Source of the DNA: a virus
Virus record (IMG/VR): IMGVR_UViG_3300009514_000005
Coordinates: 70,620 to 134,619 of that record
Direction: 5' to 3' (one strand)
DNA length: 64,000 nucleotides
The notes under the pieces were generated by a model, which worked only from the letters and a program-made list of their open reading frames with translations, made no database searches and was not told the DNA's origin. The translations under genes were made by a program, and so were the position numbers. Below are positions 23,224-41,512 of this stretch, in pieces; the stretch's first letter is position 1; the number at the start of each line of letters is the position of its first letter.

Positions 23224-24288
23224 CTAACTAATAGCTTTTCCAATATCTATTCTTTTTTTCCTAAGGGTACGTTGAGATCCAAAGCGATGAAATTTCCGAG
23301 ACATCTGAGATATAAGGCTTCGCTTGCTATACATTCGTCTTACCGCAGCAACAACTGCATTCTGAACATCTTCAGGACTTTGAAATTTTGGAATCTTACC
23401 CGTCTGCTCCAGCTCGCCAAGAACCAATAGCATTCCATCAACAAACTTTTCAAGAGTATCGTCATCAATATGTTTAAAAAAATCCTGAACAGTTGTCTCT
23501 TTTTCTGGCTCTTGGCCGACAGGGTTATCCTCATCTTCTTCTTTCAAAAGATTAACAATTCCGTTTAAATCCTCATAAACCTGATCAATTACTTTGCTAG
23601 CCATATTATCCTCCGATTCTTTTTTCTGAAGCCTCACTTCCTCTAATCCCAATGCTACCATTACGCCATGAAGCTCTCTTTTGAATTCATTAGAATAGCG
23701 ATAGACATCTACTCTCATCTTTGGACTATCCTTAAACTTTTTATCTTCCTTATCAGAATGCTTAGCGTCCATTGCATCAACAGCAGGGACATCTACAATA
23801 TCCAAAACATCAGAACCTACAAGGGCACCAAGAAGAGCTTTTGTATCAAACCTTGGGGCATCAAGACCGCCCTTTTCTGCTCCACCTAATGTGACAGGAA
23901 AGCCCACTTCTTTTGAAAACTTAACAAAAACAGTAAAAACATCAGGAGCAAATATTACAGACAGGGCATCTCTTTTATTGAAAAAATCCCAAATATCATC
24001 CCAATCATCATCAGAAAGACCTCTAAATTCTGGCTCACCACTAAGCTCTTGTTGGAAAACCTCGGCGGTATTGGCCTCGTTTGCCTCTGAAATCGATATT
24101 CCCCTAAAGGCTGCGCTTAAAACAAAGGAATCAATACCTTCCTTTATGCCTTTATAAATGCTCGTAACGAGACCCCAATCGCGATCGGTAAACTCCGACT
24201 CCCCTTTTTTTCTAGACCTTTCCACGGCGGCTTTGGCTCTTTTCCATTTTGTTTCTTGAGCCTTGGTCTTAACCATATTGCTTGGCAT
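23224..24288 (-). CDS. Hypothetical head-associated protein (354 aa)
   Basis: N-terminal MPSNMVKTKAQETKWKRAK...WGLVTSIYK helical module; several hydrophobic-x-E sites. Confidence 0.6.
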   Translation of the reverse strand: MPSNMVKTKAQETKWKRAKAAVERSRKKGESEFTDRDWGLVTSIYKGIKEGIDSFVLSAAFRGISISEANEANTAEVFQQELSGEPEFRGLSDDDWDDIWDFFNKRDALSVIFAPDVFTVFVKFSKEVGFPVTLGGAEKGGLDAPRFDTKALLGALVGSDVLDIVDVPAVDAMDAKHSDKEDKKFKDSPKMRVDVYRYSNEFKRELHGVMVALGLEEVRLQKKESEDNMASKVIDQVYEDLNGIVNLLKEEDEDNPVGQEPEKETTVQDFFKHIDDDTLEKFVDGMLLVLGELEQTGKIPKFQSPEDVQNAVVAAVRRMYSKRSLISQMSRKFHRFGSQRTLRKKRIDIGKAIS

Positions 24289-24545
24289 TAATATTTCCTT
24301 ATCCGAATAAGAGCTTCGTCCAATCGATTGGAGATTGAATTCAAATTAATTTTACAGATAAAATTATCTTCCTCTATTTTTTTACGTGGTCGCCCTCTTT
24401 TCTTTTCAGGCTCTTCCTGTCGACCCTCCGTTTCTTCTAGTCTTTCACCCCAATCCGAAAATAAATAATCATCAACAACCCTAGACTCCTTGCTTATGGC
24501 TTCGCCAATCATTCGATCTAAATCACCTAAGCTATCAAAATCCAT
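24288..24545 (-). CDS. Hypothetical protein
   Basis: 85-aa ORF coupled on both sides by stop/start overlap. Confidence 0.55.
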   Translation of the reverse strand: MDFDSLGDLDRMIGEAISKESRVVDDYLFSDWGERLEETEGRQEEPEKKRGRPRKKIEEDNFICKINLNSISNRLDEALIRIRKY

Positions 24546-25072
24546 TAAAGGGCTCCGCCATCAGGCAATTTTCTCTCTGGTATAAATGAATCATGCCTTA
24601 CAAAGTCACAGATATACTGAGTCCAAACATCAGAGTCATTTTCCCATCCATCTCGCTCAACTTTTTTTAGCTCAAAAAACCATCTCTTGTCTGGAATATT
24701 TGAAAATAATTCAAATACATCACCTTCCTTTACTCTATCTCCTTCCGAAGTAGCTGGCACATTTTTATCTTCAAGATTTTTTCGACTAAAATAAATCACG
24801 CCATCTCGAGTAATGTCTAAACCATGAGGAGTTCCGTCAGAAGTTCTAACTGGTTTCTGAAAAAGACCCAACACTTCAAATGGATAATAATTAGTTCCAA
24901 CCGGGCCATTCGCGTCAACGATTGGCTCACCGTATAAGCAATCGATTTCAGCCATTGATGTTGGCTTGGTGAATGTCCAAAGAATCAGATTATCGGTACC
25001 GGCGAGAGTAAGAACCTCAACGTTGACCTGATCATAAAATGTTTGCTCAGAATTATTAAGTAAAGTTCCCAT
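24545..25072 (-). CDS. Neck / head-closure protein (T4 gp14-like)
   Basis: DCLYGE...Y.PFEV, DITRDGVIYFSRKNL, VKEGDVFE..WFFELKKV; position in the neck region. Confidence 0.65.
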   Translation of the reverse strand: MGTLLNNSEQTFYDQVNVEVLTLAGTDNLILWTFTKPTSMAEIDCLYGEPIVDANGPVGTNYYPFEVLGLFQKPVRTSDGTPHGLDITRDGVIYFSRKNLEDKNVPATSEGDRVKEGDVFELFSNIPDKRWFFELKKVERDGWENDSDVWTQYICDFVRHDSFIPERKLPDGGAL

Positions 25073-25081
25073 ACCATCATT

Positions 25082-25279: not shown

Positions 25280-25290
25280 GGGCTGCCCCT

Positions 25291-25315
25291 AAAGGAAAGG
25301 GGCCTAAGCCCCCTT
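25291..25315 (-). terminator. Possible weak intrinsic terminator
   Basis: GGGGC-TTAG-GCCCC hairpin over the stop of the 737-aa gene, followed by TTTCCTTT. Confidence 0.3.
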
Positions 25316-27517
25316 CTTCATTTTTTCTTTTAATTTCTTTTTCATTTCGTCAGAGAGAGCCTTGCCTTTCCCTTCAGTAATGCCCTTTCTGATCCCACGG
25401 AAGCTATTGTAAGCCTCGAAAAGCTTCGCCCCCATGATCTTAAGAGACTGCTCATCAAACACACCTTTTTCCATCATTTCGCCAATGAAGGCTTGATCCG
25501 TAAAACAACGGTGTGGAAATCGGCTAAGAACTCTTTCGATAGACTCCTTCCTAAGAGGACCTTCGCTTTTTTCTCTGAGATCACTTAGGGTTCGGGCTAG
25601 ATATGCTTTTGGACCAGCGCTTTCTTTTTTCATTCCAAGAAGCTTTTTCTCTTTTGCTTTTTCCTCGGGGGTTTTTTTCTTGCTCCCCATATGGGTTCCA
25701 CCGCAAGCTTCCTTGATTTTTCTATTTCGACTTTCTCGAATTCGTCTCATACGGCTTTCTTTCATATGAGCGTAATCACCAACTTTTTTCGGAGTTTTTA
25801 CTTTGCTGTCGGGAAGGCCACCCTCGTCATACTCTTGGCCTTCTTTTCCATGAGGACGATCCAGAGATGTTTTTGAATCCATGGTTCCTTCATTGCCTTT
25901 GTAATTTTGCTTCAATGCACCACGCTTTAGAGAATCAATATCAGAATCTTTACTCTTGATTCCACTCATGGCAGAACTTCCACCGGGCTTCTCGCCATAC
26001 TCAGTGCCGGATTTACTAGAAACCTTACCTGGACCACCACCTGGCTTCATGTGATCAGACATGGCAGTGTAGCCTTTCTTTAAATTCTTGTCCCGATCTT
26101 TGGTGCGAGTATCATACTCTTTTACGCTGGATGCATCGCGATACTCGTCTTCCTGAAGAGGAAGTCCAAAAAAGCTAACATCTTCAAAATCATTCCAAAA
26201 ATCTCGGTCTTCAGTTTTACTCTTCATCTCACCCTCCATCGGTAATGACATTATAACTCTTTCCTCATCCATTTCAAAACCTTCTTGAACGCTATCATAA
26301 ACTGGATCAATTGACTCTTTCTTACCGCCAGGGATTATTCCCTTTGGGCCACTTTTGGTTGCACCCTTGGTGACTGGTCTGCCTCTTCTTGTCCTTCTCT
26401 CTTTTTCTTGCTCTTCCCTCTCATCTCTTTCCGAACCTTCCTCTTCTTGTTCCATAAACTTTTCAAGCTCTTTGTCGCTAATTTTCAATTCTTTTTGCAG
26501 ATCCCGAACATTAACCTGGGCAATCCAAAAAGCCCCGCCTCCTAAACCACCCGTGGCATAAGTATCTTCCCCGCTCCAATACAACATAGCCTGGCTGCCA
26601 GCTTCTTTTTTTTCTTCTTCACTTAAGCCATCAATAAGAGCCTCAAGTAAATCATCAACTGGTTTGCCATTTATTTTTCCAGGACGATCCTCAAGATAAA
26701 CCTCTTCCTCTTCGACAGGCCATCTAACCAATTCTCTGTAAAGGGTATAGTAGGAATCAACCTGGTTATCGGAAGTTTTTTCAAGGGCCACTACAATATC
26801 ATCATCAGACACACCTCTTTTTCTAGCTATCTTGATAATAGGAATCAACTCATCATCATCATCGGCCGTATCACCTTCGAGCCAATCATCTAAATCAAAA
26901 TTCTCAAAAGCATACCCAAGATGAGTTTCACCATAATCATCACTCTTCATGTACTCTTCTTCTGATTCATCTACATCATTTAGAAATTGAACAAGAGCTT
27001 CTATCTGTTGTTTTTTTCCTTTAAATCTATATTCAAAACCGCCACCAACACCCCTCTTTTCTCCAGGCTCTTCTTTTTCAGGAAACATTGTCGCGTGATC
27101 ATATTGTTGAAAAGAATCAGACATTACCCTGAATCCTTCATCAAGTTTTTTTGGATCAACAATATCTGGATTTTGGATTATCGCACTCACCCGAATAACA
27201 TTAAAGTTTCCCTCTTCTGATTCCTTCTTCCAATACTCATACCCACTGGCATCATTCCATCCATAAACAGTAAACCCCTCGCCCTCCCAATCACGGGTCT
27301 CAATATCTTTTTCCATCTCGGCATATTGCTCGGGAGTCATCTTGGAAACATCAGGATAAGAATAACCAGTTCGCTCACTCGTAGTGAAAATATTTTTATC
27401 GCCAACATTTGGATCATAATCAACAGGAGTTCTTAGTTCCTGCTCAAGATTCTCCATCTTCTTTTCAATGGGAGCTTGTTTTTCAAAACCCCCTTTTTGA
27501 ACTTCGGCTTCGTTCAT
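25304..27517 (-). CDS. Large acidic modular head-associated protein (737 aa)
   Basis: Very D/E-rich N-terminal modules, K-rich C-terminus, many hydrophobic-x-E sites; shares a domain with 27517..29508. Confidence 0.7.
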   Translation of the reverse strand: MNEAEVQKGGFEKQAPIEKKMENLEQELRTPVDYDPNVGDKNIFTTSERTGYSYPDVSKMTPEQYAEMEKDIETRDWEGEGFTVYGWNDASGYEYWKKESEEGNFNVIRVSAIIQNPDIVDPKKLDEGFRVMSDSFQQYDHATMFPEKEEPGEKRGVGGGFEYRFKGKKQQIEALVQFLNDVDESEEEYMKSDDYGETHLGYAFENFDLDDWLEGDTADDDDELIPIIKIARKRGVSDDDIVVALEKTSDNQVDSYYTLYRELVRWPVEEEEVYLEDRPGKINGKPVDDLLEALIDGLSEEEKKEAGSQAMLYWSGEDTYATGGLGGGAFWIAQVNVRDLQKELKISDKELEKFMEQEEEGSERDEREEQEKERRTRRGRPVTKGATKSGPKGIIPGGKKESIDPVYDSVQEGFEMDEERVIMSLPMEGEMKSKTEDRDFWNDFEDVSFFGLPLQEDEYRDASSVKEYDTRTKDRDKNLKKGYTAMSDHMKPGGGPGKVSSKSGTEYGEKPGGSSAMSGIKSKDSDIDSLKRGALKQNYKGNEGTMDSKTSLDRPHGKEGQEYDEGGLPDSKVKTPKKVGDYAHMKESRMRRIRESRNRKIKEACGGTHMGSKKKTPEEKAKEKKLLGMKKESAGPKAYLARTLSDLREKSEGPLRKESIERVLSRFPHRCFTDQAFIGEMMEKGVFDEQSLKIMGAKLFEAYNSFRGIRKGITEGKGKALSDEMKKKLKEKMKKGA

Positions 27518-29508
27518 TATGCAGGTTCCTTGATGTCCTTTGGTTCTTTGGCTGCAACTGGTCTTGGAGGACGAGCGGCTTTTTTAACCTCTGGAGCTTC
27601 TCTTGAAATTTCACCAGAATCAATTTTAGCTTTAGCGTCGTCAGCACTATCGGCTGTTCCAAGCGGTTCTTTCTTCCCATCCAGTACTGCCTGAAGATCT
27701 TTTTGAGTTGTGACAAGAGTTTCCCCGTAGTCACCACCAAAAATAACAAACCCTTGGTGTTCAATAGTTCCAGGAGGCTTCCATCCTCTAACAGACCTCC
27801 CAGCCTTAGTTTGATATTGTTTTACCAATTCCATAGGGAAGTCTTTATCGATAAGCTCTTTGGCCTGGTCAATGCTTGAAACAGTAAGAGGGACTCCACC
27901 ATGACTAACCTGATCACCCTCCCCTCCATGACCATGATGAACATTAAAAGTTTTTCCATCACGATTTCTAAGAATGCTGTATTCATCTACACTTACATAA
28001 TCTTCAATATCGCCATGAATAATTACAAATTTGTTACCACTCGTTCTAGCTCTTTCGATACCGTCCTCAACTTCTGACTCATTTGGATCCTCTAAATGAA
28101 CCCCAGTAATTAAATCATCACTCGAGCTAACCGCAACTTTCACCGTAATTCCATCCACCTCTCTCACGAATCCTGTTTGACCGGCATCATAATCAATTAC
28201 CTCAGCAGCCCTCTCGCCTTCTTTTCCTTTTCCGAATTCAGCTCGGTAAATATCGGCTTCATCAATTGATTCTTCTTCAACCTCAACACCAAGATCTACG
28301 GCCAATTCATCCGGGTCTACCCTGGCTACCCAAGACCGATAAGATGCATCCATGTAAACATAATCGTCTCCTGGAGACCAATATGCATCGTCCACATTGT
28401 TGGCCACATCCTTAAGATCTTCTTCAGATAGACCTTTTATAAGATCATCCATTACATCATTAGTATCTCGGCCATTTACTTTTCCAGAAATTCCTGAAAT
28501 TTGATCCGCAATTTCTCCAATTAATGCATGAATAATTCCATGAGTTTCTCTTTCAATTGTTCCTGGAGAAATATCTAAATTATTTGAAATAGCATCCTTA
28601 ATTTCTTCATCTGATTTACCTGCTTTTCTAGCGGCTTCGATAACCGCAACAACATCTTCTGTATATCTATCCGGATCTCTCGCGTAATCATCAAGATCAA
28701 ACCCCTCCCAATAAGCATCAATATAATTATTTCCAGCGTCTTCATGCTCAGTTTCATACTCGTATCGCCATCTAGCTTGATCGTTTATAAATTGAGCAAG
28801 AGTCTCTTTTTGGCTTTCTTTATCGGAAAATGAATAACCTTGATTTTCTAAATCTGGATCATCGGCCTCATCTACAGATTTGTTCTTACTTTTCTTTTCG
28901 GCCCACTCAGACAAATACTGCTTATTACTTTGGACCGCCTCAACCATTGGCTGAAAATTTCCAGAAGTATCTATACCGAGCACTCGCTCTTCTTCAGTAG
29001 TGAGTTTTTGTCTGGCAATCTCAGCCCATTGAAGCTCACCATCTTCAGCTTCTCTTTCCTGAAAAGAGCCATCCATTTGCTGGGTGACGTTATGATTATC
29101 CAAATACCAAGACAGATAAAGATCAACGTCTTCATTGTTAATACTATGATTCCAATAATCATGACCGACATCATTACTTCCAAAAGCCACATTACAACAA
29201 ATCCTGGGATCCACTCGAGAAGTTACAACTAACCCATCATCAAGCCAGCCCTGGCCCTGCCTATAACCATGAGCGCTTTTTAGCTCATCAATAGTTCCCA
29301 TCTCTTCAAGCTGCTTAACGCAATCAGTTAGAACATCCATGTTCACCCCTTGCTCTTCAAGCTCTCGAGTATCAAGCTTCCAAGCAAATCCATTGTTTTC
29401 CTTGAAGACATACCCTTGGTCACCTTCAGCCTCACCAAACCTTCCCCACTTAACCCGGCCAGAAGCAACTAGTTTCCCAATGACTTTTCCTTGATCATGT
29501 CCAAGCAT
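27517..29508 (-). CDS. Large acidic modular head-associated protein (663 aa)
   Basis: Modules separated by SVDE/ADD and SIDE/ADI; shares domains with 25304..27517 and 37002..40652. Confidence 0.7.
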   Translation of the reverse strand: MLGHDQGKVIGKLVASGRVKWGRFGEAEGDQGYVFKENNGFAWKLDTRELEEQGVNMDVLTDCVKQLEEMGTIDELKSAHGYRQGQGWLDDGLVVTSRVDPRICCNVAFGSNDVGHDYWNHSINNEDVDLYLSWYLDNHNVTQQMDGSFQEREAEDGELQWAEIARQKLTTEEERVLGIDTSGNFQPMVEAVQSNKQYLSEWAEKKSKNKSVDEADDPDLENQGYSFSDKESQKETLAQFINDQARWRYEYETEHEDAGNNYIDAYWEGFDLDDYARDPDRYTEDVVAVIEAARKAGKSDEEIKDAISNNLDISPGTIERETHGIIHALIGEIADQISGISGKVNGRDTNDVMDDLIKGLSEEDLKDVANNVDDAYWSPGDDYVYMDASYRSWVARVDPDELAVDLGVEVEEESIDEADIYRAEFGKGKEGERAAEVIDYDAGQTGFVREVDGITVKVAVSSSDDLITGVHLEDPNESEVEDGIERARTSGNKFVIIHGDIEDYVSVDEYSILRNRDGKTFNVHHGHGGEGDQVSHGGVPLTVSSIDQAKELIDKDFPMELVKQYQTKAGRSVRGWKPPGTIEHQGFVIFGGDYGETLVTTQKDLQAVLDGKKEPLGTADSADDAKAKIDSGEISREAPEVKKAARPPRPVAAKEPKDIKEPA

Positions 29509-29509
29509 T

Positions 29510-29926
29510 TTATCCCTCCGCCCATCTAGCCATTCGTTCTTTCCCGATAGCTCTTAATCTGTACTGATCCCTCAGGTATCCTATCGTAATGACATCCAAC
29601 ATTTTTTGTTCTGAGCTATCCCATAAAACCAAGCTCATATGCCAAGTATCAGTGATTACATAGCTTTTCAAAAGATAACTTTTCCCTTTGATCTTGATAC
29701 GGTACCGGAGCATTGTCCCGCTAGCACTTCTTCTTCTCGTTGGAGATCCAGCTTTTACCTTAACGCTTTTTAAAATCTGTTGAACAATTTGTTTTGCCTT
29801 CGCCTCCGGAGAATCAGCTTGGCCCTTTATCTTTGCCTTTTTGACAGGAGCACCACCAGATACAGGAAGCCCTAATCCTTTCAGGAATTTATTTAGTCCA
29901 GCAAAACGCTCTAAAATTTGGTCCAT
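29510..29926 (-). CDS. Basic hypothetical protein
   Basis: 138-aa K/R-rich ORF in the operon. Confidence 0.6.
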   Translation of the reverse strand: MDQILERFAGLNKFLKGLGLPVSGGAPVKKAKIKGQADSPEAKAKQIVQQILKSVKVKAGSPTRRRSASGTMLRYRIKIKGKSYLLKSYVITDTWHMSLVLWDSSEQKMLDVITIGYLRDQYRLRAIGKERMARWAEG

Positions 29927-29929
29927 ATC

Positions 29930-30442
29930 TTAATTTACCATCAGTTCAATTGGAAATCCAAAGTTGTCTACCCCATGATCCAAAGAATAATAATCCACAT
30001 CTTCCTTGATCGAACCAATAAAATATTCATCTTCCTCTTTGGATATAAGGCCCATTTTTTCAATTTCTTTTTTAAATTTTGGCTGTAAATTCTGAGGCAA
30101 ATCGTTGGTCGGAAACCATCCATAATCTTGATGCTCTGGACTTAAATCCGGAACAAAGCTATTTGTTTCTTCCACCGGAACATCGAATATAAACATTGTG
30201 TAGACATCATTAGAGACGCTCTCACCAGTGTTTTCCGATTTCGGAAGAGACCCTATCTCTTCCTCCGTTTCTCTTTTGGCGGCATCCAGCGGGTCTTCTC
30301 CGTCCTCTATATGACCACCAGGAATCCCCCATGTGCTTGGAAAGGTTTCCTCATCATCACTTTTTTTAATAAGAAAAATATCATCACCAGACTTAAAAAG
30401 AATCCCGGCAGCAATCTTATCTGTACCTTCAAAAATTAACAT
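29930..30442 (-). CDS. Nudix hydrolase
   Basis: Nudix box GHIEDGEDPLDAAKRETEEEIG; downstream EHQDYGWF. Confidence 0.92.
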   Translation of the reverse strand: MLIFEGTDKIAAGILFKSGDDIFLIKKSDDEETFPSTWGIPGGHIEDGEDPLDAAKRETEEEIGSLPKSENTGESVSNDVYTMFIFDVPVEETNSFVPDLSPEHQDYGWFPTNDLPQNLQPKFKKEIEKMGLISKEEDEYFIGSIKEDVDYYSLDHGVDNFGFPIELMVN

Positions 30443-31428
30443 TATTCCTTAGATTTTGTTGAAAGCTTTTGATGGGCTATCGATGCATCGCGATAATAAT
30501 TCATTGTTTTTTCTGGAACTCCGGTTCCATCTAAATCATCCCATTGTTTTTTCTGGGCATGAGAAGCATCGATATGATCCTGTCTTGTGAAATCTCTATG
30601 AGCAGGATTGGCCACATAAAGCCAAATATCTTTTCCGCTTCTTGTTTTTCCAATCACTCGATCAGGGCCAATGTCTCCAGTTGCCTTGGGACTCTTGCTG
30701 GCTGGCTCCTCTTTCTCGTCAATCGATTCCTTCGCTTCTTTGCCTTTAATTCTTTGAACAACTTGTTCTAGCTGACTCAAAACATCTGGTTCGACCTTTC
30801 CAAATAAATCCTCAACATCCTGCAAAAGACCAAGAGCATGTTTGGCTTTATCTTTTTTCATCTGTACGTCATCGCCTTCTTCGATGGATTCGTCCCCAGC
30901 ATCCTCAGGGCCAAGATCCATTTTGTCTATAGCGTTATAAGCAGAGTCATAAGGAGACTCAAAACTAGGCCCACTAGAAGAACTCACCCCACGCTCTTTC
31001 ATAAACTTCGCAGTCTCTGGATCATCTTCAGGAGAAACCCCGTGGCCGACAGCCACCATTGCAAGATTGTAGGCGGCATTTTCATCAAATTCAACAAGCT
31101 CTGCTACTGTTAATTTTCCGGCCCAATGCTCATTGTATGCCTTCACAATTTCGTAACCAAGCCTTGAATCAACAAAGGTATCAATATCAAAACCTTTTTC
31201 ACTGATAAAATCCGGAACAGTTTGAGTAAGTTCCCCATGGATTTCACCTTCAAGATCCGGGTAGTCTGATTCAATGGTACTAGCAAAAGCATCGATAAAA
31301 AGAATCCAGGCCATGTAGTCTCGGTAATCTTCTCCATCAATCTCAGGAGGATTTTCTTCGTCTTCCCTGATGATGCCTTCACAGATAAAAGCATCATAAA
31401 AACCATCGATTGATTTTTTCAAATCCAT
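30442..31428 (-). CDS. Acidic modular head-associated protein (328 aa)
   Basis: Modules bounded by FICE/GIIRE/D, SIEE/GD and SIDE/K. Confidence 0.65.
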   Translation of the reverse strand: MDLKKSIDGFYDAFICEGIIREDEENPPEIDGEDYRDYMAWILFIDAFASTIESDYPDLEGEIHGELTQTVPDFISEKGFDIDTFVDSRLGYEIVKAYNEHWAGKLTVAELVEFDENAAYNLAMVAVGHGVSPEDDPETAKFMKERGVSSSSGPSFESPYDSAYNAIDKMDLGPEDAGDESIEEGDDVQMKKDKAKHALGLLQDVEDLFGKVEPDVLSQLEQVVQRIKGKEAKESIDEKEEPASKSPKATGDIGPDRVIGKTRSGKDIWLYVANPAHRDFTRQDHIDASHAQKKQWDDLDGTGVPEKTMNYYRDASIAHQKLSTKSKE

Positions 31429-31432
31429 ATCA

Positions 31433-32719: not shown

Positions 32720-34228
32720 TTAAGCTGGCAACCCGAATGCAAACTCCTTAGGATCAGAAACGTGATCCGGACCAAAAGTCCCTGGAGTTAAAGTTGTAAG
32801 ATTTGTGGTTTTAAGAAGCCCGTAAAACTCAGGTCTGGCCAAAAGTTTTGCGTAACGAGTTCTCAATCCTTTCCTAAATTTAAAATCGTTTGGATCAAGG
32901 AATGTTGCGGTGACCTGAAGAGGAACGTACGGGGCCCATACATACCCTGCGTCAATGAAGTTGTTTCCACGATATCCGATGATTGCCTGCTCTGCTTGAA
33001 GATACGGATCTTTGTAAGCAATATATCTTTGTTGCAGTGTTCCCATCTTCATCATGCCCCAAGTTTGAGGAGATTCAGCAGCGCTTCTCGCGTCTGCGTT
33101 TCCGGCAAAGATTGGTCTAAAGTCACCATGGGTTCCCAATTGCTCAACTTGAGCCGCAAGATCGTAACTCATCACAATCCAGTTTGCTGGACCCCTCAAG
33201 GTATTCTTTCCAATCTGGTTAGAGATCAGAGTGATCGGAGTTAGAATTGATCGGATATGCTCAATATCGTTCAATCCAGAAGGAACCGTGAAATCGAAAG
33301 TGGTTGTTGCTCCAGTGTTTCCAACCCTTAAGTCTTCGATGATCTCTCGATCGATTTCTAAGGCCAGTTCACTTCCGATACCAGCAACTAATTCCTGCTC
33401 TGCGTCCACCCCGTGAAGAGCTTTCAAGTCATCGGCTGACTCGGTTGACCACAATGCTTTAATCTTTCTGGTTCGAGCTACCACCGCCACAAGAGCAATG
33501 TCGATATTTACTGTTGGAACCTTGGTATTACACTCGTTGTTATACTCATAAGTAATTACCTGGTCCACGCCACTTCCTGGAGCCACTGAATAAGTCACAC
33601 TGATTTCACCAGTGGTATAGTTAATGGTTCCAGCAGAGATTCCAACTCCGGTGATGTTTCCAGCACCATCATCCACTCCACTTACAGCTCCAGTCAATAA
33701 AGACAAACTGTTCTTTCTAACGGGGTTCCACTTAAGAGTTCCAGCAAGAGTAACCGCGATACCGTTACCAGTTGCAGAAGCTTCACCGTCAATAAACTCG
33801 CTAGAGTAATTTCGGTTAAAATCCTTTACCAGTTTATCGCCTTCAGTCACAGCACCCTTGGTATCGCCATACTTTAACTCAAAGTAAAAAATGGCTCCAA
33901 CCGGGGCAGACATTGGCTGAACAGAAACAATCTCTGGGGCAATCAAAGACGGCCAAACCCTTCGAAGAAGAGGAAAGGTATATTTAATAAATGGGGCAGT
34001 GTTAGTGGTGGCTGTTGCCTCGCCAAGAACATGCTTTTCCTTGAATTGCTTTAACTCAGAGAGCTGATTCTCGTAGAGCTGAGATAGACAATATTTTTGG
34101 TAGGAATTTTGGACCTTGCCAGGAATCCATTTATTCCATCGCTCAATAAGAGCTTTTCGCTGAGGGTTACGGACAAAATTGTCCCCATTCAGCTCTCCCC
34201 GCATTTCTTGGAGTTTTCTTTGTTCCAT
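32720..34228 (-). CDS. Major capsid protein (T4 gp23-like)
   Basis: LYENQ...LGE/AT, FPLLRRVWPSLIAPEIVSVQPMSAPVGAIFY, ARTRKIKALWS.E.ADDLKALHGVDAEQEL..LALEIDREII, YVWAPYVPL, GLRTRYAK. Confidence 0.96.
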   Translation of the reverse strand: MEQRKLQEMRGELNGDNFVRNPQRKALIERWNKWIPGKVQNSYQKYCLSQLYENQLSELKQFKEKHVLGEATATTNTAPFIKYTFPLLRRVWPSLIAPEIVSVQPMSAPVGAIFYFELKYGDTKGAVTEGDKLVKDFNRNYSSEFIDGEASATGNGIAVTLAGTLKWNPVRKNSLSLLTGAVSGVDDGAGNITGVGISAGTINYTTGEISVTYSVAPGSGVDQVITYEYNNECNTKVPTVNIDIALVAVVARTRKIKALWSTESADDLKALHGVDAEQELVAGIGSELALEIDREIIEDLRVGNTGATTTFDFTVPSGLNDIEHIRSILTPITLISNQIGKNTLRGPANWIVMSYDLAAQVEQLGTHGDFRPIFAGNADARSAAESPQTWGMMKMGTLQQRYIAYKDPYLQAEQAIIGYRGNNFIDAGYVWAPYVPLQVTATFLDPNDFKFRKGLRTRYAKLLARPEFYGLLKTTNLTTLTPGTFGPDHVSDPKEFAFGLPA

Positions 34229-34261: not shown

Positions 34262-35851
34262 TTAAACATTTGAAATTTGCTCGATGTCTTCATAACTCAT
34301 CCCGAATTCCTGAAGCTCACCTTCTAATCCTTCTGTTACCATCTCCCCGCTTGATTGAGTCCTCTTTCGAGTTCCAGTTTCATTAACATGGTCCTCAACT
34401 AAAGATGGATTCTTTTCTGCTCCGCGTTTTAATCTTTCTTGAATTAAATTATATTCCTTTGTTTTCTTCGCATCAACCTTAAACTTTTCAACTATTTGGT
34501 CAATCTCTTTTTTAGAGGTCGATTCAACACATATTTGTCTGATCTTTGGTCCGTTAGGATTATTGGCAATCTTCTTTTCAAGATAAAGCTGTAACCCATA
34601 ATTCTTCGCAAGCTGCATAGATTCAGTGAGGGCTTCATCCCGCTTTTTGATCTGATCTTCAAGCTGTTTAATCTTCTTATCAAGGGCTTCTGTGATTTTT
34701 TTACTCTCTCGCTCTTTAGCTTTTTCTTCAGCGATCTGATCAGCAATATGTGACTTGGCTTTCACTACGGCTTCCTTCAAACTGTCTTGAGTCTCATATT
34801 GCTTGATGTCTCCGATCAACTTAAGGATATGATCTTTATGAGAATCCTCAAAAATTTCTTTACTCAAGGTTACGCGCATTCCCATTCTCTGAGCGATCGC
34901 AGCAATTTTTTCAGCCTTTTCTTCAACAACCTTGATTTCCGCATCTTTCTTTTCCAGCGACTCTTTAAGAGAAGCGATTTCATCATCACGCTTCTTGATC
35001 TCGACATCAACGTCTTCCGGAAGAACAAATGGTCTCATAAGGGTTTTCACCTGATCAAGAACACCCCTTGCTCCAGCCACCTCAGGATCACTAAGAAGCT
35101 TATTTTTAGCTTCTTCCATAAACTTTTCCTTGGCCTCTTCGATTTTCTTAGGAAGCTCTTCAGCGAACTTTTTAGTGAGTTCAACCTTCTGCTCTTCTAG
35201 TTTGGTCTGAAGAACGCTCTCAGTTAAAGTTGCCTTGTTTTCATTATTGGTTTCCATTACGGTCTCCTTGGGTGATTCATCTTTAATTACTTCTAGATCT
35301 TTGTGGTGATTGCCTTCGCTAAAAAATTCAGGATAACTTGATTGTACGGCAGGATCAGCCACAAAATCATGAGTCATGTATTGATAATCATCTTGCACTT
35401 CTTCAATTCCATCACTATTTTGAGCCGTTGATCCCATGCCACGACTTGAGATACCGATGGCTCCACCACCCTGCAAAATACTTTTAAGCTGTTTTCCATG
35501 TTCATTGTCTAAAATTTTGGCTTCACCAATAATTTGGCCATCAGGAGTAATTTCCAAACATGTGATGATATGGCTAACTCGCGCAAGTGATGTCTTGCCA
35601 TCTGCAGGGTGGTCAAGATGACCCAAAACCTTCCCAACCTTAATGGCCTCTTGAATTTTATTAATTTCTCTTTCCCAAAGGGCTCTCGGATAAACTCTTT
35701 TATTTTCAGTTGGCACATCGCAGCGGCCAAATTCACCTCGGGCCATGAAGCTTCCGTCTTTACTCTCCTGGATAGTAAGCTTGATAAGCGTGGCATCAGT
35801 GAGGGTTCTTGCGCTTTTTTTGAATCCTGATTCGCTTAATTTCTCAGCCAT
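34262..35851 (-). CDS. Prohead protease (T4 gp21-like) fused to a coiled-coil scaffold
   Basis: ENKRVYP, LGHLDHP, VSHII, IGISSRGMGS, DFVADPA, then ~330 aa of E/K coiled coil; ATG 35851 preferred. Confidence 0.92.
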   Translation of the reverse strand: MAEKLSESGFKKSARTLTDATLIKLTIQESKDGSFMARGEFGRCDVPTENKRVYPRALWEREINKIQEAIKVGKVLGHLDHPADGKTSLARVSHIITCLEITPDGQIIGEAKILDNEHGKQLKSILQGGGAIGISSRGMGSTAQNSDGIEEVQDDYQYMTHDFVADPAVQSSYPEFFSEGNHHKDLEVIKDESPKETVMETNNENKATLTESVLQTKLEEQKVELTKKFAEELPKKIEEAKEKFMEEAKNKLLSDPEVAGARGVLDQVKTLMRPFVLPEDVDVEIKKRDDEIASLKESLEKKDAEIKVVEEKAEKIAAIAQRMGMRVTLSKEIFEDSHKDHILKLIGDIKQYETQDSLKEAVVKAKSHIADQIAEEKAKERESKKITEALDKKIKQLEDQIKKRDEALTESMQLAKNYGLQLYLEKKIANNPNGPKIRQICVESTSKKEIDQIVEKFKVDAKKTKEYNLIQERLKRGAEKNPSLVEDHVNETGTRKRTQSSGEMVTEGLEGELQEFGMSYEDIEQISNV

Positions 35852-35882
35852 TCCGTCAGCCTTTTGCTCCAATCAATTGGAG

Positions 35883-36074: not shown

Positions 36075-36075
36075 A

Positions 36076-36696
36076 TTAATTATGTCTATATGCGACAATT
36101 TCAGTCGATCCGTAACCAAGCTTTTCTCTTAATGATTCAGAAATAGTAGTCTCTATCTCCTCACCATCATAACTTCCAAAGTGCTCTTCTGGAACATCAA
36201 GATAAAGATCCAGCCATTTAGAAAGGCTAGTCACTTTAGTCGTTCCAGGACCAGCAGATTGGCCAAGAGCCCAATTAACCAAAGCCTCATCTCCAACCAT
36301 TACTCTGAATTCCTCTGGATCATTTTGGACCATTTCTAACCAGTATTGACGGGCAGCCTTACCGGCGTCTTCACGATTTTCAGCCACATAATAATCGGCA
36401 CCATCGATTTCAACCATGTACATATTTTCGGAAAGATTATCAAAACCTTTGATCTCTTCTTTTTTCCCATCAATCTCAATCCAATCTACGTCAGACCCCT
36501 CTTCTTCCTCATCCTGCTCGGTGAGTTTTTTTGTCTCATGGACACTCTTCATTAAGACCCCAGCCAGATCATTAAAGCCTGGATATTGCTTAGTAAACCC
36601 CTTGGCAATCTCTTCCATATCTTCTTTTTTGAGGTCACCTTTATGCTCATCCAGTTGAGAGTGAAATTTATCAATGATTGATTCTAATTTTTCCAT
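36076..36696 (-). CDS. Acidic head-region protein (206 aa)
   Basis: N-terminal helix, KLTE/QD site, then an acidic domain ending HFGSYDGEEIE. Confidence 0.65.
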   Translation of the reverse strand: MEKLESIIDKFHSQLDEHKGDLKKEDMEEIAKGFTKQYPGFNDLAGVLMKSVHETKKLTEQDEEEEGSDVDWIEIDGKKEEIKGFDNLSENMYMVEIDGADYYVAENREDAGKAARQYWLEMVQNDPEEFRVMVGDEALVNWALGQSAGPGTTKVTSLSKWLDLYLDVPEEHFGSYDGEEIETTISESLREKLGYGSTEIVAYRHN

Positions 36697-37005
36697 TTAT
36701 TCATCCTCCGGAAGAACATCCCTAAATTTGTCCACGTATGTAATAATCTTATCCTTTTCAGCAAGTTCTTGCTTCTGAAATTCACTCCACTTACTAATTT
36801 CTTCTTCAGCGGAATAGATCTCTCTCTTTTTTTCTCTAGTACGATTCTTCAGGCAACGATACGCGGCTTGTTGGCTTTTGTGAAGATGGGGACAGAATTT
36901 AGTGCGATAATTTCCATTCCCGTCACTCATGACGAGCCCAGTTATTCCGGCCCCATACTCCTGGCCACGATCTCCCAAATCCTGCATCGCTAAAGATTCT
37001 TTCAT
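36697..37005 (-). CDS. Hypothetical protein
   Basis: 102-aa ORF coupled to its neighbours; CPHLHKSQQAAYRC. Confidence 0.55.
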   Translation of the reverse strand: MKESLAMQDLGDRGQEYGAGITGLVMSDGNGNYRTKFCPHLHKSQQAAYRCLKNRTREKKREIYSAEEEISKWSEFQKQELAEKDKIITYVDKFRDVLPEDE

Positions 37006-40000
37006 CCCAATGCCTTTAAAATCTCATCCACCTTTAATCTACCACCAGTTATTCTTTCAATGTCCCTGGCGGCCTCTCTAGCATCTTCCCTTCTCGGGAG
37101 ATTGTTAATAGCGTCAACAGCATCCTCAACACCAATCTCACCAATATAAAACTCAAGCTGCTCTTTAAAAAAATCATCATCTATATCTGGAGAAATTTGA
37201 TTCGTATCTACCTCAGGCTTTGACTCTCCAAAAATTTCAAAATACTTATTTATCCAATGGAGACCCTTGGTAATTTGCTCATCAGAAAGCTCTTCATCAA
37301 CTGGGATATCCGGAGCCATGTAACCTTCTCCAGCCACCATCGCATTAATTAAATGCTCTGGATTTTTAATCACAAGAGTAACCGTTTGATGTTCCTGATC
37401 AATCGTGGCCGAATCAATTCCAGCCGAAGTGCTAACACCCACCTGATTACCATCAGAATCCATTCCAATGTATTCAGCAGGTACATTATCAATTATTTCA
37501 TAAGCTTGCTCTAATGCATCATAAACAGCTTTGACATATTGGGGTTCCATACTAAAAGATTCAGCATCACTAAGAGCAAAGCCAACAGCAGATGGAAAAT
37601 ATTTATCAGCACCATCAAACTGTTCAGGAAGATCAACATTCATGGATTGAATTTCTTGATCCGTATATCCAGGATGTGTCTCAATTTCAAACGGCTCCTC
37701 TAGCCTAGAATAAATCTCGGAATATCCCATATCTTCAATGGCATCTTTTAAAGGAATTTGAACAGTAACAGTACGATCTACTGGAGATGTATCTTGTTCC
37801 GCAATTACTCTACTGGAACCACCAACGCTCTCTTGTTGAATTTCCCCATGAATCCAAACAACCGGAAACATTTTGGCAAAAGCATCCTCAATCGCTCGAT
37901 CCAATTCATCACGATCCGGATTATCTAAATGCATTCCAACTTTGTGCTCATCTTCCGGGCCAGAAATCTTTTTAACTTTGACCGTAAAACCATCTTCTTC
38001 GTAAGTTTCCTCTTCGAAATCTGGTCCACGTTTTTTCTTTTCGATCCCAAGCTGGCGAACATTGTCGTCATCAGCTTCCGCTAGGGGCTTTCTCGGCACC
38101 TCTTTAGCCTCACCTTTTACGATGGGGCCACGATCCCTAGCTGCCAAATCTTCATAATCCAGCTCAACATAATCCACTTTACTACCAAGAGTTTTTTGAA
38201 ACTCTTTTAGATCTTCTTGGGTATGAGCGTAAACATTTAAAGCCGCACCTTCTGATCCCCTGGCGATAGAAATTCCTTGGCCACCTTTTTCCTGAAGCTC
38301 TTCAACAGCTTCTTGCTCTATCGGTGATTTAAGATAAATTGTTGCGAAAAAACCTTTGGTTTCTTTTTCTTCCCTAACGATTCCAGTTGGACCGCTTTTT
38401 CTTGATCTTCTTTTACCTTCGGGCTCAAAATCAAAACTGGTATCTAGTGCAGCCTCTAGCTCACCAATGCCATCAATCTCACCATCCGGATGGACTACGA
38501 TTTCAATATCAAATTCATGCTTAGGATTATCACCAGTTTCATCAAAGCCAGCAGACCATGTGAAAACGCCATACATGGAATCATTAATCATTGATGGACC
38601 GTATAAATAAATCTCCAGAACACCTTTTTCTTTTTCATTGTCTTTTTGGATATCTAATAAATCATACTTAGCAGATGGTTCCTTGTCGGTGCTGTAACCC
38701 ATTTTAGCTAATTCACCAGCCACACGCTTTAAGAACTCAAGCTTTTGATCACTGCTCATCTCGGAAGTTTCTTCACCCAAAGATTCTTTGGACCCAAGAT
38801 TTCTTTTCTTTTTACCTGGAGTCATTTTTGGGAACTCCCCAAGCTCACCACCATAAGGATCAGACCCACGGGCATACCCGCCTTCTTTTTGAATATCTTT
38901 CATTCGCTTGTAGGCAGATGCGGTATGGCCAGAACCTTTGTAGTCTTCAGTTTTAGACTCATAATAATCTTCAGATGGCTCATCAAGATCACTGAATGCG
39001 TCTGCACCGGATTCGGTGAACTTAGCGACACCCTCTAGGGCGATATAGTATTCAGGGTCAACCTCTACTGATAATTCAAATTGATCACCAGGATCATATT
39101 TAGATCGAAACCACCCAGCAGAAAGAACCAACGTAGATACTTTTTCTTTGTAGCCCGGATCATAAACATCATTTTTGTAATCAAATGATAGAGTTCCTTC
39201 CTCTCCAAATCTATATTCAAAGTCTTCTATATCTTCTTTATTCGTTAAGGAATCAAATTTAACCTCAATACCATTGGGTGACTCTTGAGTGTCCATATAT
39301 GATTCAAACCTAACGCCCACCACTGAAGGAGAAAAAACAATTTTGTTTCCAACCTTCTTATAATCAACATCACCCTTAAGCTTAACGAAAACACCAGCAC
39401 CACCGCCTTCTGACACAACACCAGATTCGGTAACGAGTTTTTCCATGGCCCTATCAAGGTACTCAACAATCTTAACCAGAATCCCATGAGCCTCTTCAGT
39501 GTCAACAGCACCTTCCTGAATAGCCTTGGCTATTGTCTCAGCATTTTCCTTTAGAGAAACAAGATCACCTCTAACTTCTAATTGTTTTTCCTCAAGGATT
39601 GGTTCTTTCTTTGGGCCACTTAATTCCTCGTTTAGAAATCCGGAAAATCCACTATTCATATGAGCGGTGTTTTTTTCGGTTTTAACGAACTCTGGCATAT
39701 CAGGAAGATTATCAAAGCCAAGATCTTCACTGCTTGTCCTATCGATTATCTCCTTGTGTTCTTTAACGGATTCCTCGGCTCCGGATCCCTTCACATAAAT
39801 AACAATGTGAACATAATTTTCACTTGGATACTGCTCTAGATATTCTTCAATCTCTTCATCGGTAACATCTGATAATTCTTTCCTTTGTTCTCTGGCGATT
39901 TCTTCTTTGGCTGCATCATGTTCAATTGGACCTACTAAATCCTCTTCAGAAGCCTTACTGATATCTATACCTGAAACATCCCAACCACCTGAAGCTAGTT

Positions 40001-40652
40001 GATCAAGAGCATCCTCGGCGGCTTCTTTTTCCGACATACCAATACCAGTGGCTACATCTTCCCAATCGGTAAAAGATGTTCCAGCGCCTTGCCAATAACT
40101 TGAGTTTTCAACGCCATAATTTTCAATCTCATAATCAGCAACTTTTTTGTCACCGTCTTCATCTTCTTTGATGATTTTCTTTGAACCGTGGTCAGGGAAA
40201 ATTTCATTCAGATCCTCAGCAAGAGCCCCAGCATTTAAAAAAGCCTGGATAAGATCTTTGGACTCACCACCATTTAACTGATGATCTATTTCTTTTAACT
40301 CTTTTACGAGCCCATCGATTCGACCTTTATTTTCCATTTTCCACTCCCTCATATTTTCGAGTAAATTATGCCAGCCTTCTCTTCCGGCAACTCGGAGCCT
40401 TCTTCTTGGGCCAAGCTTTCTCTTGCCCATTCTCTTCTGAATTGCTTTCCTCTTTTTTGCTAATCTTTTAAATCTCGGCTTTCTTCGTCGCATTTTGGAA
40501 GCCCTTTTAATTCTGGACTTATGCTTTCTTGCGTACCTTCTGGATTTGGCCCTTTGAGCTGGAGACCTACGTTTAACACGCTGAATCTTCACCTCTTCCA
40601 ACCAATGTTCAACAAGTAACGCTAAACTTTCTACATCTGGAAATTTGTTCAT
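37002..40652 (-). CDS. Prohead-core-like polyprotein (1216 aa): Arg-rich N-terminus plus several acidic modules
   Basis: WLEE/VKIQRVKRRSPAQRAKSRRYARKHKSRIKR...(reminiscent of T4 gp68-type basic core segments), followed by acidic domains with hydrophobic-x-E linkers; between portal and protease. Confidence 0.7.
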   Translation of the reverse strand: MNKFPDVESLALLVEHWLEEVKIQRVKRRSPAQRAKSRRYARKHKSRIKRASKMRRRKPRFKRLAKKRKAIQKRMGKRKLGPRRRLRVAGREGWHNLLENMREWKMENKGRIDGLVKELKEIDHQLNGGESKDLIQAFLNAGALAEDLNEIFPDHGSKKIIKEDEDGDKKVADYEIENYGVENSSYWQGAGTSFTDWEDVATGIGMSEKEAAEDALDQLASGGWDVSGIDISKASEEDLVGPIEHDAAKEEIAREQRKELSDVTDEEIEEYLEQYPSENYVHIVIYVKGSGAEESVKEHKEIIDRTSSEDLGFDNLPDMPEFVKTEKNTAHMNSGFSGFLNEELSGPKKEPILEEKQLEVRGDLVSLKENAETIAKAIQEGAVDTEEAHGILVKIVEYLDRAMEKLVTESGVVSEGGGAGVFVKLKGDVDYKKVGNKIVFSPSVVGVRFESYMDTQESPNGIEVKFDSLTNKEDIEDFEYRFGEEGTLSFDYKNDVYDPGYKEKVSTLVLSAGWFRSKYDPGDQFELSVEVDPEYYIALEGVAKFTESGADAFSDLDEPSEDYYESKTEDYKGSGHTASAYKRMKDIQKEGGYARGSDPYGGELGEFPKMTPGKKKRNLGSKESLGEETSEMSSDQKLEFLKRVAGELAKMGYSTDKEPSAKYDLLDIQKDNEKEKGVLEIYLYGPSMINDSMYGVFTWSAGFDETGDNPKHEFDIEIVVHPDGEIDGIGELEAALDTSFDFEPEGKRRSRKSGPTGIVREEKETKGFFATIYLKSPIEQEAVEELQEKGGQGISIARGSEGAALNVYAHTQEDLKEFQKTLGSKVDYVELDYEDLAARDRGPIVKGEAKEVPRKPLAEADDDNVRQLGIEKKKRGPDFEEETYEEDGFTVKVKKISGPEDEHKVGMHLDNPDRDELDRAIEDAFAKMFPVVWIHGEIQQESVGGSSRVIAEQDTSPVDRTVTVQIPLKDAIEDMGYSEIYSRLEEPFEIETHPGYTDQEIQSMNVDLPEQFDGADKYFPSAVGFALSDAESFSMEPQYVKAVYDALEQAYEIIDNVPAEYIGMDSDGNQVGVSTSAGIDSATIDQEHQTVTLVIKNPEHLINAMVAGEGYMAPDIPVDEELSDEQITKGLHWINKYFEIFGESKPEVDTNQISPDIDDDFFKEQLEFYIGEIGVEDAVDAINNLPRREDAREAARDIERITGGRLKVDEILKALG

Positions 40653-40709
40653 CTACCTGTCCCTGGTAATATATTCATTCTAGCATGAGCATAATAATTG
40701 ATCAAAAAG

Positions 40710-41057
40710 CTATTTATCCTCAGCCGTTTTCCATAGCTTATCCGGATCTATACTTTCTCCTGAAAGCATTGCCGCGACCATTTCTTCGGCCTCTGTTTTC
40801 TTTTTTGACTCAACTTCTTCCTCGCTCATCAAAGAAACACTATAAGCCTCATCAAGAACAATCTCATTGTTCTCTATTCGAAGTCTTCTGAATTCATTAT
40901 CTTCTTTGACAACGACTACATAGTTTCCAAAAGTGGCGAGTCTTTTCGAGTCTTTATAGTTTTTATTCTCTGAAAGCACATGATCAATCTCGGCCATCTT
41001 ACTCTCAAAACTACCCTTCACAATATTATCCAAATCTTTTACTTGAATGAATTTCAT
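40710..41057 (-). CDS. Hypothetical protein
   Basis: 115-aa ORF in the head operon. Confidence 0.6.
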   Translation of the reverse strand: MKFIQVKDLDNIVKGSFESKMAEIDHVLSENKNYKDSKRLATFGNYVVVVKEDNEFRRLRIENNEIVLDEAYSVSLMSEEEVESKKKTEAEEMVAAMLSGESIDPDKLWKTAEDK

Positions 41058-41512
41058 GATATTTCCCTCTCGAAAAAGTCCTTAAAACTATCCTGCATTT
41101 TAATTACCGCCGTATAAAAATTATCTAGCTCAATTTGAATATCAGCTTCAAAATATATCTCACCACTTTTAAGGTCTTCAATTTTTGTAGGCCATTCTAA
41201 AATTGTCACCTCAGAGATAGCTTCAACTCCAGGAAATTCCTCCTCGGTGATTTCGTCAATCTCTCTGGCTAATTTTTTATTCCAATCAGGGCCAGTAAAT
41301 TTGTCATCCAAAAAATCAGACAACGCATCTTCATCTTCTGGGTCACCATCAAATTCTTTTACAACAGAACTGACATCCCCAAGATCAACTCGACCATCCA
41401 GTTTTATAGTGCCGGGCTTTGATTCGTCGTATGACTCTTCGATTTTAATTTCCATTATTTTTTCCTCATTGTATGCTGAAGATCCTTCAGTAATCCTTCC
41501 ATCCTTGACCAC
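41054..41512 (-). CDS. Acidic hypothetical protein
   Basis: 152 aa; RITE/GSS site followed by an acidic domain. Confidence 0.6.
   Translation of the reverse strand: MVKDGRITEGSSAYNEEKIMEIKIEESYDESKPGTIKLDGRVDLGDVSSVVKEFDGDPEDEDALSDFLDDKFTGPDWNKKLAREIDEITEEEFPGVEAISEVTILEWPTKIEDLKSGEIYFEADIQIELDNFYTAVIKMQDSFKDFFEREIS

Follow-up and report, generated by a model that had tools for sequence, protein, structure and literature searches.

Candidate protease-processed cargo polyproteins with exchangeable modules among the head genes of an uncultured T4-like phage

The window analyzed here is a 64-kb stretch (64,000 nucleotides) with which a single contig of 134.6 kb, IMG/VR record IMGVR_UViG_3300009514_000005, ends. 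Its source is a divergent uncultured T4-like myophage, and positions 23224–41512 of the window are the head morphogenesis block. Between 15 kb and 47 kb almost every gene lies on the minus strand, in one late operon. In the order of transcription, the operon starts with a TubZ-like tubulin, terL with an intein and a gp20-type portal, continues through open reading frames (ORFs) of 152, 115, 1216, 102 and 206 residues to an S77 protease–scaffold fusion, a gp23-type major capsid protein (MCP), a 132-residue ORF and a 247-residue Ad2-like adaptor, passes through ORFs of 328, 170 (Nudix), 138, 663, 737, 65, 175, 85 and 354 residues, and ends with rmlD, rmlC and rmlA followed by sheath and tube genes (Table 1). 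The acidic giant ORFs are set with terL and the portal gene on one side and the protease and MCP genes on the other. The original prediction, made from the sequence alone, was that about 10 of these ORFs are loaded into the prohead as modular precursors, cut after Glu by the protease and injected with the DNA. Here we describe two of them, of 1216 and 663 residues, as putative carriers of exchangeable modules whose junctions bear the predicted motif of the prohead protease.

For comparison, we used 11 IMG/VR contigs whose capsid proteins are 64–71% identical to that of the source phage, the related loci being labeled with L-numbers (L002, L003 and so on). The nearest annotated MCPs, those of an uncultured 595-kb phage, Bacillus phage SP-15 and cyanophages, are merely 30–37% identical, and a metagenome scan with the MCP alignment found few further loci. 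A BLAST comparison of the large ORFs with every ORF of the related loci defined the modules A–E, G, D′, P and R and split the 1216-, 663-, 737- and 328-residue ORFs into them, bearing out the proposal that the large ORFs are made of discrete domains. The 1216-residue ORF starts with a leader (residues 1–15), an Arg/Lys-rich peptide (16–99) and a spacer (100–163), together block A (1–163), and goes on with modules B (164–230) and C (291–416), two stretches unique to the source phage (417–626 and 627–859) and modules D (860–952) and E (953–1216). Block A opens the first giant ORF after the portal gene in five relatives, whose giants range from 948 to 2431 residues. The 663-residue ORF has an N-terminal anchor (1–200) with positional orthologues in six relatives, followed by VDE214/A, module G (216–415), IDE417/A, a short copy of module D termed D′ (450–502), VDE509/Y and a C-terminal part. 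Module order and host ORF differ between relatives, modules being swapped between ORFs or found as stand-alone proteins: module E ends the upstream giant here and also belongs to the upstream giant in L004 and L007, its place in L002 and L006 being the downstream carrier. Module G shows the opposite arrangement, as it is downstream here and part of the upstream giant in L002 and L006. Both modularity and exchange are real.

Every cleavage site that the original prediction named was found. Of the eight internal ones, seven fall on module boundaries derived independently by BLAST (Table 1), and the eighth, LGE626/E, sits in a stretch unique to the source phage that offers no boundary for comparison. 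The latter had been given as ESLGEE/T; the site is present but the cut was imprecisely placed, since the motif is LGE626, which would put the cut at LGE/E. Where homologous modules start, the motif persists though the upstream sequence is unrelated. It reads IAE, MKE, VTE, VTE and LAE before module E, VDE, LTE, IKE and FPE before module G, and IKE, VNE and VNE before module B, which in L006 is a separate ORF opening with MSKKIVE/F. We also considered a fixed linker DNA serving as a recombination junction; it was ruled out, as the junction residues differ between relatives (IAE, MKE, VTE and LAE).

The largest sample of junctions came from module E, whose profile, built without the upstream residues, was searched against 1.84 billion proteins. 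The family comprises 131 representative clusters at 50% identity and has a nearly invariant N-P-E-H-L-[IL]-N; a look-up of the clusters yielded no names but "hypothetical protein". Many members are stand-alone proteins of 270–300 residues starting exactly at the module N terminus (M-x-KKPIER...); embedded copies occur in proteins of up to 1591 residues. Upstream of the module, 30 representatives had 11 or more residues, and 20–21 of these 30 carried [ILVM(F)]xE ending at most 7–9 residues from the projected module start, in comparison with 5–7 expected from the same proteins (binomial P value 4e-8 to 9e-10). Without the training sequences and near-duplicate contexts, the motif was retained in 14 of 23 (P value 8e-5). 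An AlphaFold2 (AF2) model of the module (predicted local distance difference test [pLDDT] 94.4, predicted template modeling score [pTM] 0.85) shows a fold of the alpha/beta type, its first strand being at residue 8, and the motif lies outside this fold because the first seven residues of the model are coil. For the fold, Foldseek found nothing at E ≤ 1e-3 in PDB and BFVD, and the wide VIA search gave a best Z of 4.4. A sequence homologue search with module E returned the query itself only. Two IMG/VR scans with module E alignments added the new loci L017 and L018 in one and gave the same clade only in the other. No members were found in GTDB genomes, which were scanned for stand-alone module E, or in GenBank phages, and the stand-alone proteins had no PHROG match.

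The ORFs singled out around the protease and MCP genes for their acidity (1216, 737, 663, 354, 328 and 206 residues) lie on the minus strand, in a region that is indeed unusually acidic. To quantify this, the 199 ORFs of the contig were divided into the 18 within 23224–41512 and the 181 others. The median isoelectric point (pI) was 4.77 for the head-region ORFs and 6.57 for the others, with acidic fractions of 0.213 and 0.135, respectively (P value 8e-7, Mann–Whitney test). Counting the motif, which had been proposed as a check, turned out to be uninformative for most ORFs: with residue shuffles of each ORF as the chance level, only the protease–scaffold and the 737-residue ORF (six [IL]xE[AGS] in comparison with 1.9 expected) exceeded it. 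Pooled over the clade, the motif was enriched in the upstream giants (z 2.9–4.5) and in the protease–scaffolds of eight relatives (z 9.5–12), while the downstream carriers reached z 3.6 with a small or polar P1′ residue and 0.9 for plain [IL]xE; MCP and portal showed no significant enrichment (z −1.3 to 1.7). What exceeds chance is the position of the motif, not its total frequency, the sites lying at module boundaries defined by homology. A short leader ending in the motif was present in 12 of the 18 head-region ORFs and 57 of the 181 others (P value 0.004), a difference confounded by Glu content.

T4 gp21 cuts after L/I-x-E, and processing in T4 is prevented by an Asp at P1 (PMC9026906). The S77 protease of the source phage has His and Ser motifs, HP-x-DGKT and GVSSRG-x-GS, that are invariant in eight relatives; in its own N-terminal region, an [IL]xE site is conserved around residue 36. 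The fused scaffold was claimed to have many sites, and the motif is indeed dense there: in the protease–scaffold ORF we counted 20 [IL]xE against 10.4 expected and 10 [IL]xE[AGS] against 2.0, and the scaffold domain has about twice the expected number in all eight relatives. LGE70/A of the MCP, likewise foreseen, is a predicted propeptide cut, and the Pfam Gp23 match starts 12 residues after it. In the form [LIM]-G-E70/[ADN]-T, with G69 and E70 invariant, it is conserved in the eight relatives. As observations apart, the protease ORFs of L007 and L009 measure 870–886 residues and may contain insertions, as terL does here, and residues 198–283 of the tail sheath match an insertion in the relatives' MCPs (around residues 150–240; 34–40% identity, E 1e-7 to 1e-10), which suggests a surface domain common to sheath and capsid.

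Recognizable functions for the putative cargo come mainly from the relatives. The giants of L004, L007, L006 and L009 contain an ArdA domain as one module (Pfam, E 4e-15 to 9e-21), preceded by LKE, LKE, VKE and FSE, respectively. As ArdA acts on cytoplasmic restriction enzymes, its presence speaks for a delivery into the cell. In the source phage, no ORF matched ArdA (PF07275) by Pfam, and a hidden Markov model of the relatives' ArdA modules gave a best E of 0.013 against the 199 ORFs. The source phage has a Nudix hydrolase, for which the relatives offer no homologue. In PHROG it hits family 15528, whose portal proteins include a Nudix part. Its slot is variable and lies between module R and the 138-residue domain, which are one ORF in L002 and L006. 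The same slot in L003 holds a 175-residue ORF (6928–7455, plus strand) that starts MMYLFE/S and has two H-x-T motifs; its match to LigT-like 2H phosphoesterases is weak and below threshold (E 1e-3, 19.7 bits with a cut-off of 23.3). ArdA in the relatives and Nudix in the variable slot point to a counter-defense part in the putative cargo role. The idea of a swappable antidefense cassette thus stands as to the swapping of modules and the ArdA of four relatives, but not as to the source phage itself, where we found neither ArdA nor a known function for any module of its large ORFs. As a side observation, the giants of L002 (2033–7408, plus strand; E 2e-9) and L005 (382–7050, plus strand; E 1e-4) contain a Kyano_Gp96 domain (PF23790), a family otherwise known from T4-like cyanophages.

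A different kind of product is suggested by block A of the upstream carrier. Its Arg/Lys-rich segment is strongly conserved in all six giants aligned, and so is the site that follows it, N-[LM]-x-E/[GNV]. The leader before it, S-I-L-x-L-L-[LIV]-E/, is found in four of the six, L005 and L010 having no such stretch. If both flanking sites are cut, a protamine-like peptide would be released, and the segment could thus be an excised protamine-like DNA-binding peptide.

Table 1. Features of the head-gene region and its surroundings, in the order of transcription, with predicted cleavage sites listed after the ORFs that contain them
Feature	Window position	Strand	Evidence or remark
TubZ-like tubulin/FtsZ homologue, directly upstream of terL	46403..47617	-	Pfam Tubulin E 3e-13, TubZ-like_C E 1e-5
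terL, split by intein with HNH endonuclease	43244..46330	-	Pfam Intein_splicing E 1e-18, HNH_3 E 3e-9
Portal protein, T4 gp20 type	41455..43230	-	Pfam Portal_T4 E 1.3e-66
152-residue acidic ORF, pI 4.1, leader MVKDGRITE9/G	41054..41512	-	GTG start uncertain
115-residue acidic ORF between portal and protease	40710..41057	-	No Pfam family
1216-residue ORF, putative carrier polyprotein	37002..40652	-	Modules from BLAST against relatives; sites LVE15/H, LLE99/N, IKE163/D, VSE415/G, LGE626/E, LAE859/A, IAE952/Q
84-residue Arg/Lys-rich segment (residues 16–99), pI 12.0	40356..40607	-
Site IKE163/D			Boundary A to B (start of B)
Site VSE415/G			End of C
Site LAE859/A			Before D
Site IAE952/Q			D to E (start of E)
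Module E (residues 953–1216), after IAE952/Q	37005..37796	-	Uncharacterized family
102-residue ORF	36697..37005	-	No family match, no homologue in relatives
206-residue acidic ORF directly upstream of protease; LDE17/H, LTE60/Q	36076..36696	-	No family match
Prohead protease (S77, T4 gp21 type) fused to scaffold domain	34262..35872	-	Pfam Peptidase_S77 E 1.2e-15, PHROG 207 E 1.5e-45
MCP, gp23 type	32720..34228	-	Pfam Gp23 E 9e-70, profile from residue 82
132-residue ORF, 39% Glu+Asp	32214..32612	-	No family match
247-residue head–tail adaptor	31433..32176	-	PHROG 211 Ad2 E 1.5e-13; 55–59% identical in 7 relatives
328-residue ORF	30442..31428	-	Module R ~24–181, IEE184/G, variable C-terminal part
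Site IEE184/G			End of module R
Nudix hydrolase, 170 residues, leader MLIFE5/G	29930..30442	-	Pfam NUDIX E 4.6e-20
138-residue basic conserved domain, pI 10.4, leader MDQILE6/R	29510..29926	-
663-residue ORF, second putative carrier	27517..29508	-	BLAST against relatives
Site VDE214/A			Start of G
Site IDE417/A			End of G
737-residue ORF	25304..27517	-	Module P 50–143, FPE147/K, module G copy 163–346
175-residue conserved ORF	24545..25072	-	40–43% identical in 6 relatives, same position; no family match
85-residue ORF, AT-hook RGRPRK, 15-residue leader ending MIGE15/A	24288..24545	-	Pfam AT_hook 18 bits, just over cut-off
354-residue ORF: basic N terminus, IKE50/G, C-terminal part ~91–354 kept in relatives	23224..24288	-
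rmlA, rmlC, rmlD (dTDP-rhamnose pathway)	21032..23197	-	Inside morphogenesis operon
Tail sheath	16827..18626	-
Tail tube paralogue, gp19 type	16277..16807	-	Pfam Phage_T4_gp19 E 1e-15
Tail tube paralogue, gp19 type	15680..16261	-	Pfam Phage_T4_gp19 E 1e-9

The remaining ORFs differ in how well they fit a cargo role. Downstream of the MCP gene, the 737-residue ORF contains a second copy of module G (31.7% identity, E 2e-14), a module P that matches an L007 ORF near the portal gene and a Lys/Gly-rich tail with the clustered sites IKE603/A, LFE701/A and ITE715/G. Module R of the 328-residue ORF is fused to the 138-residue domain in L002 (309 residues) and L006 (528 residues). That domain has stand-alone or fused homologues in seven relatives, in all of which [IL]-x(x)-E stands just before the first helix, and it may belong to the neck or to head completion or else be a basic internal protein. 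The 85-residue ORF, for which we found no homologue among the relatives, has in MIGE15/A a site resembling the [LIM]GE/A of the MCP and is a candidate small DNA-binding internal protein. Including all of the roughly 10 ORFs as cargo cast the net too wide, as four of them are positional orthologues with 25–59% identity. Judged by this conservation, the 247- and 175-residue ORFs, the 138-residue domain and the C-terminal part of the 354-residue ORF are probably ordinary neck or head-completion parts rather than cargo; more specifically, the 175-residue ORF is probably a structural neck or tail-completion protein, and the 354-residue ORF is probably structural.

Upstream, the portal gene marks the edge of the head-core block, its product sharing 49–51% identity with its counterparts in L002, L006 and L009. 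None of the five ORFs between the portal and protease genes, the 1216-residue ORF among them, matched a Pfam or PHROG family. The 152-residue ORF, with no homologue among the relatives, is a candidate small core or cargo protein, as is the 206-residue ORF for a core or cargo protein; in L003, the latter has a homologous ORF in the corresponding place (40% identity, E 9e-40). The 115-residue ORF weakly matches an ORF adjoining the giant of L010 (E 8e-6). At the position of the 132-residue ORF the relatives have an ORF of 123–226 residues, and we consider it a candidate for an additional scaffold or core protein or else for a decoration protein. At the far end of the block, the rml genes occupy the same place in L002, L004, L005, L008 and L011, and the two tail tube paralogues are adjacent.

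Taken together, the conserved junction motif, its match to the MCP site and the exchange of modules suggest that the acidic carriers are probably capsid-loaded precursors that the T4-type protease would cut into separate cargo proteins. There would be two carriers, the 1216-residue protein encoded between portal and protease and the 663-residue protein encoded downstream of the MCP, with the 737- and 328-residue proteins, the Nudix hydrolase and several small ORFs as satellites. Each carrier would consist of a conserved N-terminal anchor and then of independently folding, mostly very acidic modules. The precursors would join the prohead core via these anchors or via short N-terminal leaders, and the activated S77 protease would cut after the Glu of [I/L/V/M]-x-E at each module junction, the same motif being predicted for the trimming of the MCP at LGE70/A and the destruction of the scaffold. 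The freed modules would remain in the capsid with the DNA, enter the host on infection and act before any phage gene expression, the products including the 84-residue Arg/Lys-rich peptide. A bolder extension, though short of probable, is that the prohead protease serves as a decoder in this clade: any module placed after a junction on either anchored carrier would be loaded, released and injected, which would provide plug-in slots for counter-defense modules, such as the ArdA of the relatives, and a protamine-like peptide to condense or escort the DNA.

Several results weigh against processed cargo. The motif counts of the 1216-, 663-, 328- and 354-residue ORFs are at shuffle expectation, so that the majority of copies of such a short motif are noise and calls of individual sites uncertain. 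About one third of the extended module E homologues lack the motif, and a leader is missing altogether from many of the stand-alone ones, so the module E family is not always protease-processed. Among the head-region ORFs we found no common capsid-targeting leader like that of T4, of about 10 residues: the leaders are dissimilar (MLIFE, MDQILE, MVKDGRITE and MDFDSLGDLDRMIGE), and only the giants have one in common among themselves. The AF2 model of the 663-residue ORF, from an alignment of 10 sequences, has a mean pLDDT of 49, is confident for residues 10–140 only and is too poor to place the sites in linkers. The best structural matches of its anchor, 2ea9_A (Z 6.7) and 2inw_A (Z 6.4), do not suffice for naming a fold; these are small enterobacterial proteins of unknown function that we take to belong to the YeeU/CbeA antitoxin family, a match too weak to rely on. 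The ESM Atlas gave no usable match for this anchor or for residues 417–860 of the 1216-residue ORF, and neither Pfam nor the ESM Atlas recognized a domain or function in the modules of the source phage's large ORFs. The downstream carrier is set among neck genes. Finally, tblastn of the 1216- and 663-residue ORFs against 50,697 GenBank phage records gave no match and thus no cultured relative.

Some of these points would also suit delivery without processing, in which the carriers are polyvalent proteins packaged and injected intact, as N4 vRNAP is, and the motif reflects a habit of linkers or helix capping or a recombination junction. Polyvalent proteins are packaged unprocessed in some phages (PMC5512222), and both the near-chance motif counts of the carriers and the motif-less third of module E junctions are in line with this. 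We nevertheless consider it unlikely, since the same motif forms the invariant propeptide site of the MCP and saturates the scaffold, and at the junctions it persists while both flanks vary. Stand-alone homologues start at the predicted cut, and sites exposed in the prohead beside an active L/I-x-E protease would be expected to be cut.

The location of the 1216-residue ORF between the portal and protease genes is that of T4 gp67 and gp68. These are small core proteins, and in T4 the core proteins are cleaved to a number of fragments, which then exit from the head (PMC9026906). The acidic ORFs, of which the 1216-residue one resembles scaffolds in its acidity, might by this analogy be an expendable core or size-determining scaffold, enlarged equivalents of gp67, gp68 and gp22 that are cut and expelled before DNA packaging, with nothing delivered. 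This seems slightly less likely still than intact delivery: the modules are folded domains of 20–30 kDa (module E with a pLDDT of 94), too big for the capsid pores, and they swap freely between relatives, unlike a size-determining scaffold, while ArdA is without an assembly role and module E is common as a stand-alone protein.

External display, with the 663-, 737- and 328-residue proteins as neck, collar or capsid-decoration proteins whose anchors bind the surface and whose acidic modules face outward, would agree with ORFs that lie between the neck adaptor and the tail genes, with a conserved N-terminal anchor and variable C terminus as in fibers and whiskers and with the fusion of module R in relatives to the 138-residue domain, possibly a neck part, but we hold it to be the most improbable of the three, as modules G, E and D are common to the giants encoded between portal and protease, the junction motif is that of the prohead protease, able to act only inside the prohead, no Ig-like (immunoglobulin-like), lectin or fiber repeats were found by Pfam or PHROG, and the target of ArdA is cytoplasmic, though ArdA was found only in the relatives' upstream giants.

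If the junctions are cut, the head protease would act as a general means of releasing injected proteins from a swappable train. Processed cargo would explain how large pre-made counter-defense sets reach the host before phage gene expression, and the rule of an anchor plus an [ILVM]xE junction would find virion-delivered effectors in metagenomes, module E being one such family. It would also extend the T4 capsid-targeting and processing tool, which already packages foreign proteins, to multiprotein cargo.

Among known systems, the Dar proteins of phage P1 (DarA, DarB, Hdf, DdrA and DdrB) are alike in being head-packaged, processed antirestriction proteins delivered with the DNA (PMC5512222). 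They differ in being encoded by separate genes of a different lineage, with no homology detected and no junction-marked polyproteins. In the phiKZ-like giant phages phiKZ, 201phi2-1 and SPN3US, a diverged homologue of gp21 cuts many of the proteins inside the head after Glu, and these phages also have paralogous families, multi-site propeptides and proteins ejected into the host (PMC10052503, PMC9026906). Their motif is S/A-x-E, whereas the source clade has I, L, V or M as P3 at the conserved sites, and their cuts mainly remove N-terminal propeptides of 20–254 residues and do not separate retained modules. The tblastn search of the 1216- and 663-residue ORFs against the 50,697 phage records gave no homology to phiKZ-like inner-body proteins.

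The internal proteins of T4 and its relatives would offer a parallel in mechanism, as polyvalent proteins do in architecture. T4 gp21 removes propeptides of 7 (Alt) to 65 residues (gp23) from proteins staying in the head, the capsid-targeting sequence (CTS) being 10 residues long (PMC9026906), and the internal proteins of T-even phages are diverse defense proteins with only the targeting sequence in common (PMC3012670). The T4 set is known to counter host restriction (PMC9026906, PMC3012670). The source phage resembles T4 with its IPI, IPII, IPIII and Alt in having an S77 family protease and a hydrophobic-x-E motif, here a predicted cut, that is also present at the capsid protein, as well as short leaders (7–10 residues in T4) and a set of cargo proteins, putative here, that is highly variable between related phages. 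In T4, however, every internal protein has a small gene to itself, a conserved leader and a single cut near the N terminus, whereas most putative cargo of the source clade is concatenated into chains of 660–2400 residues with a predicted site before every module. The source phage has no leader in common, anchor domains possibly doing the targeting instead, and its proteins show no sequence similarity to T4 internal proteins (no family matches).

Polyvalent proteins (Iyer, Burroughs, Anand, de Souza and Aravind, 2017) are chains of 2–15 unrelated, shuffled domains encoded near portal–terminase genes and predicted to travel with the DNA, and ArdA, Nudix and 2H phosphoesterase are among the listed polyvalent, virion-associated domains (PMC5512222). 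The shuffling of unrelated domains and the location among virion genes are common to both. For polyvalent proteins, release has been proposed to occur by embedded peptidase domains (PMC5512222), whereas here the junctions carry the motif of a separate prohead protease. Pfam detected no embedded peptidase in the carriers of the window or in 15 carrier ORFs of the relatives, remote homologues being possible. Also unlike polyvalent proteins, the modules match no Pfam family, polyvalent-domain families included, save the ArdA and Kyano_Gp96 of the relatives. In the literature, we found no paper describing an arrangement of protease-joined cargo polyproteins. As read from the sequences, what would be new in comparison with T4 and polyvalent proteins is a concatenated cargo with a prohead-protease motif for each module, borne on two anchored carriers that exchange modules. 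If so, T4 internal proteins and polyvalent proteins, so far described separately, would merge.

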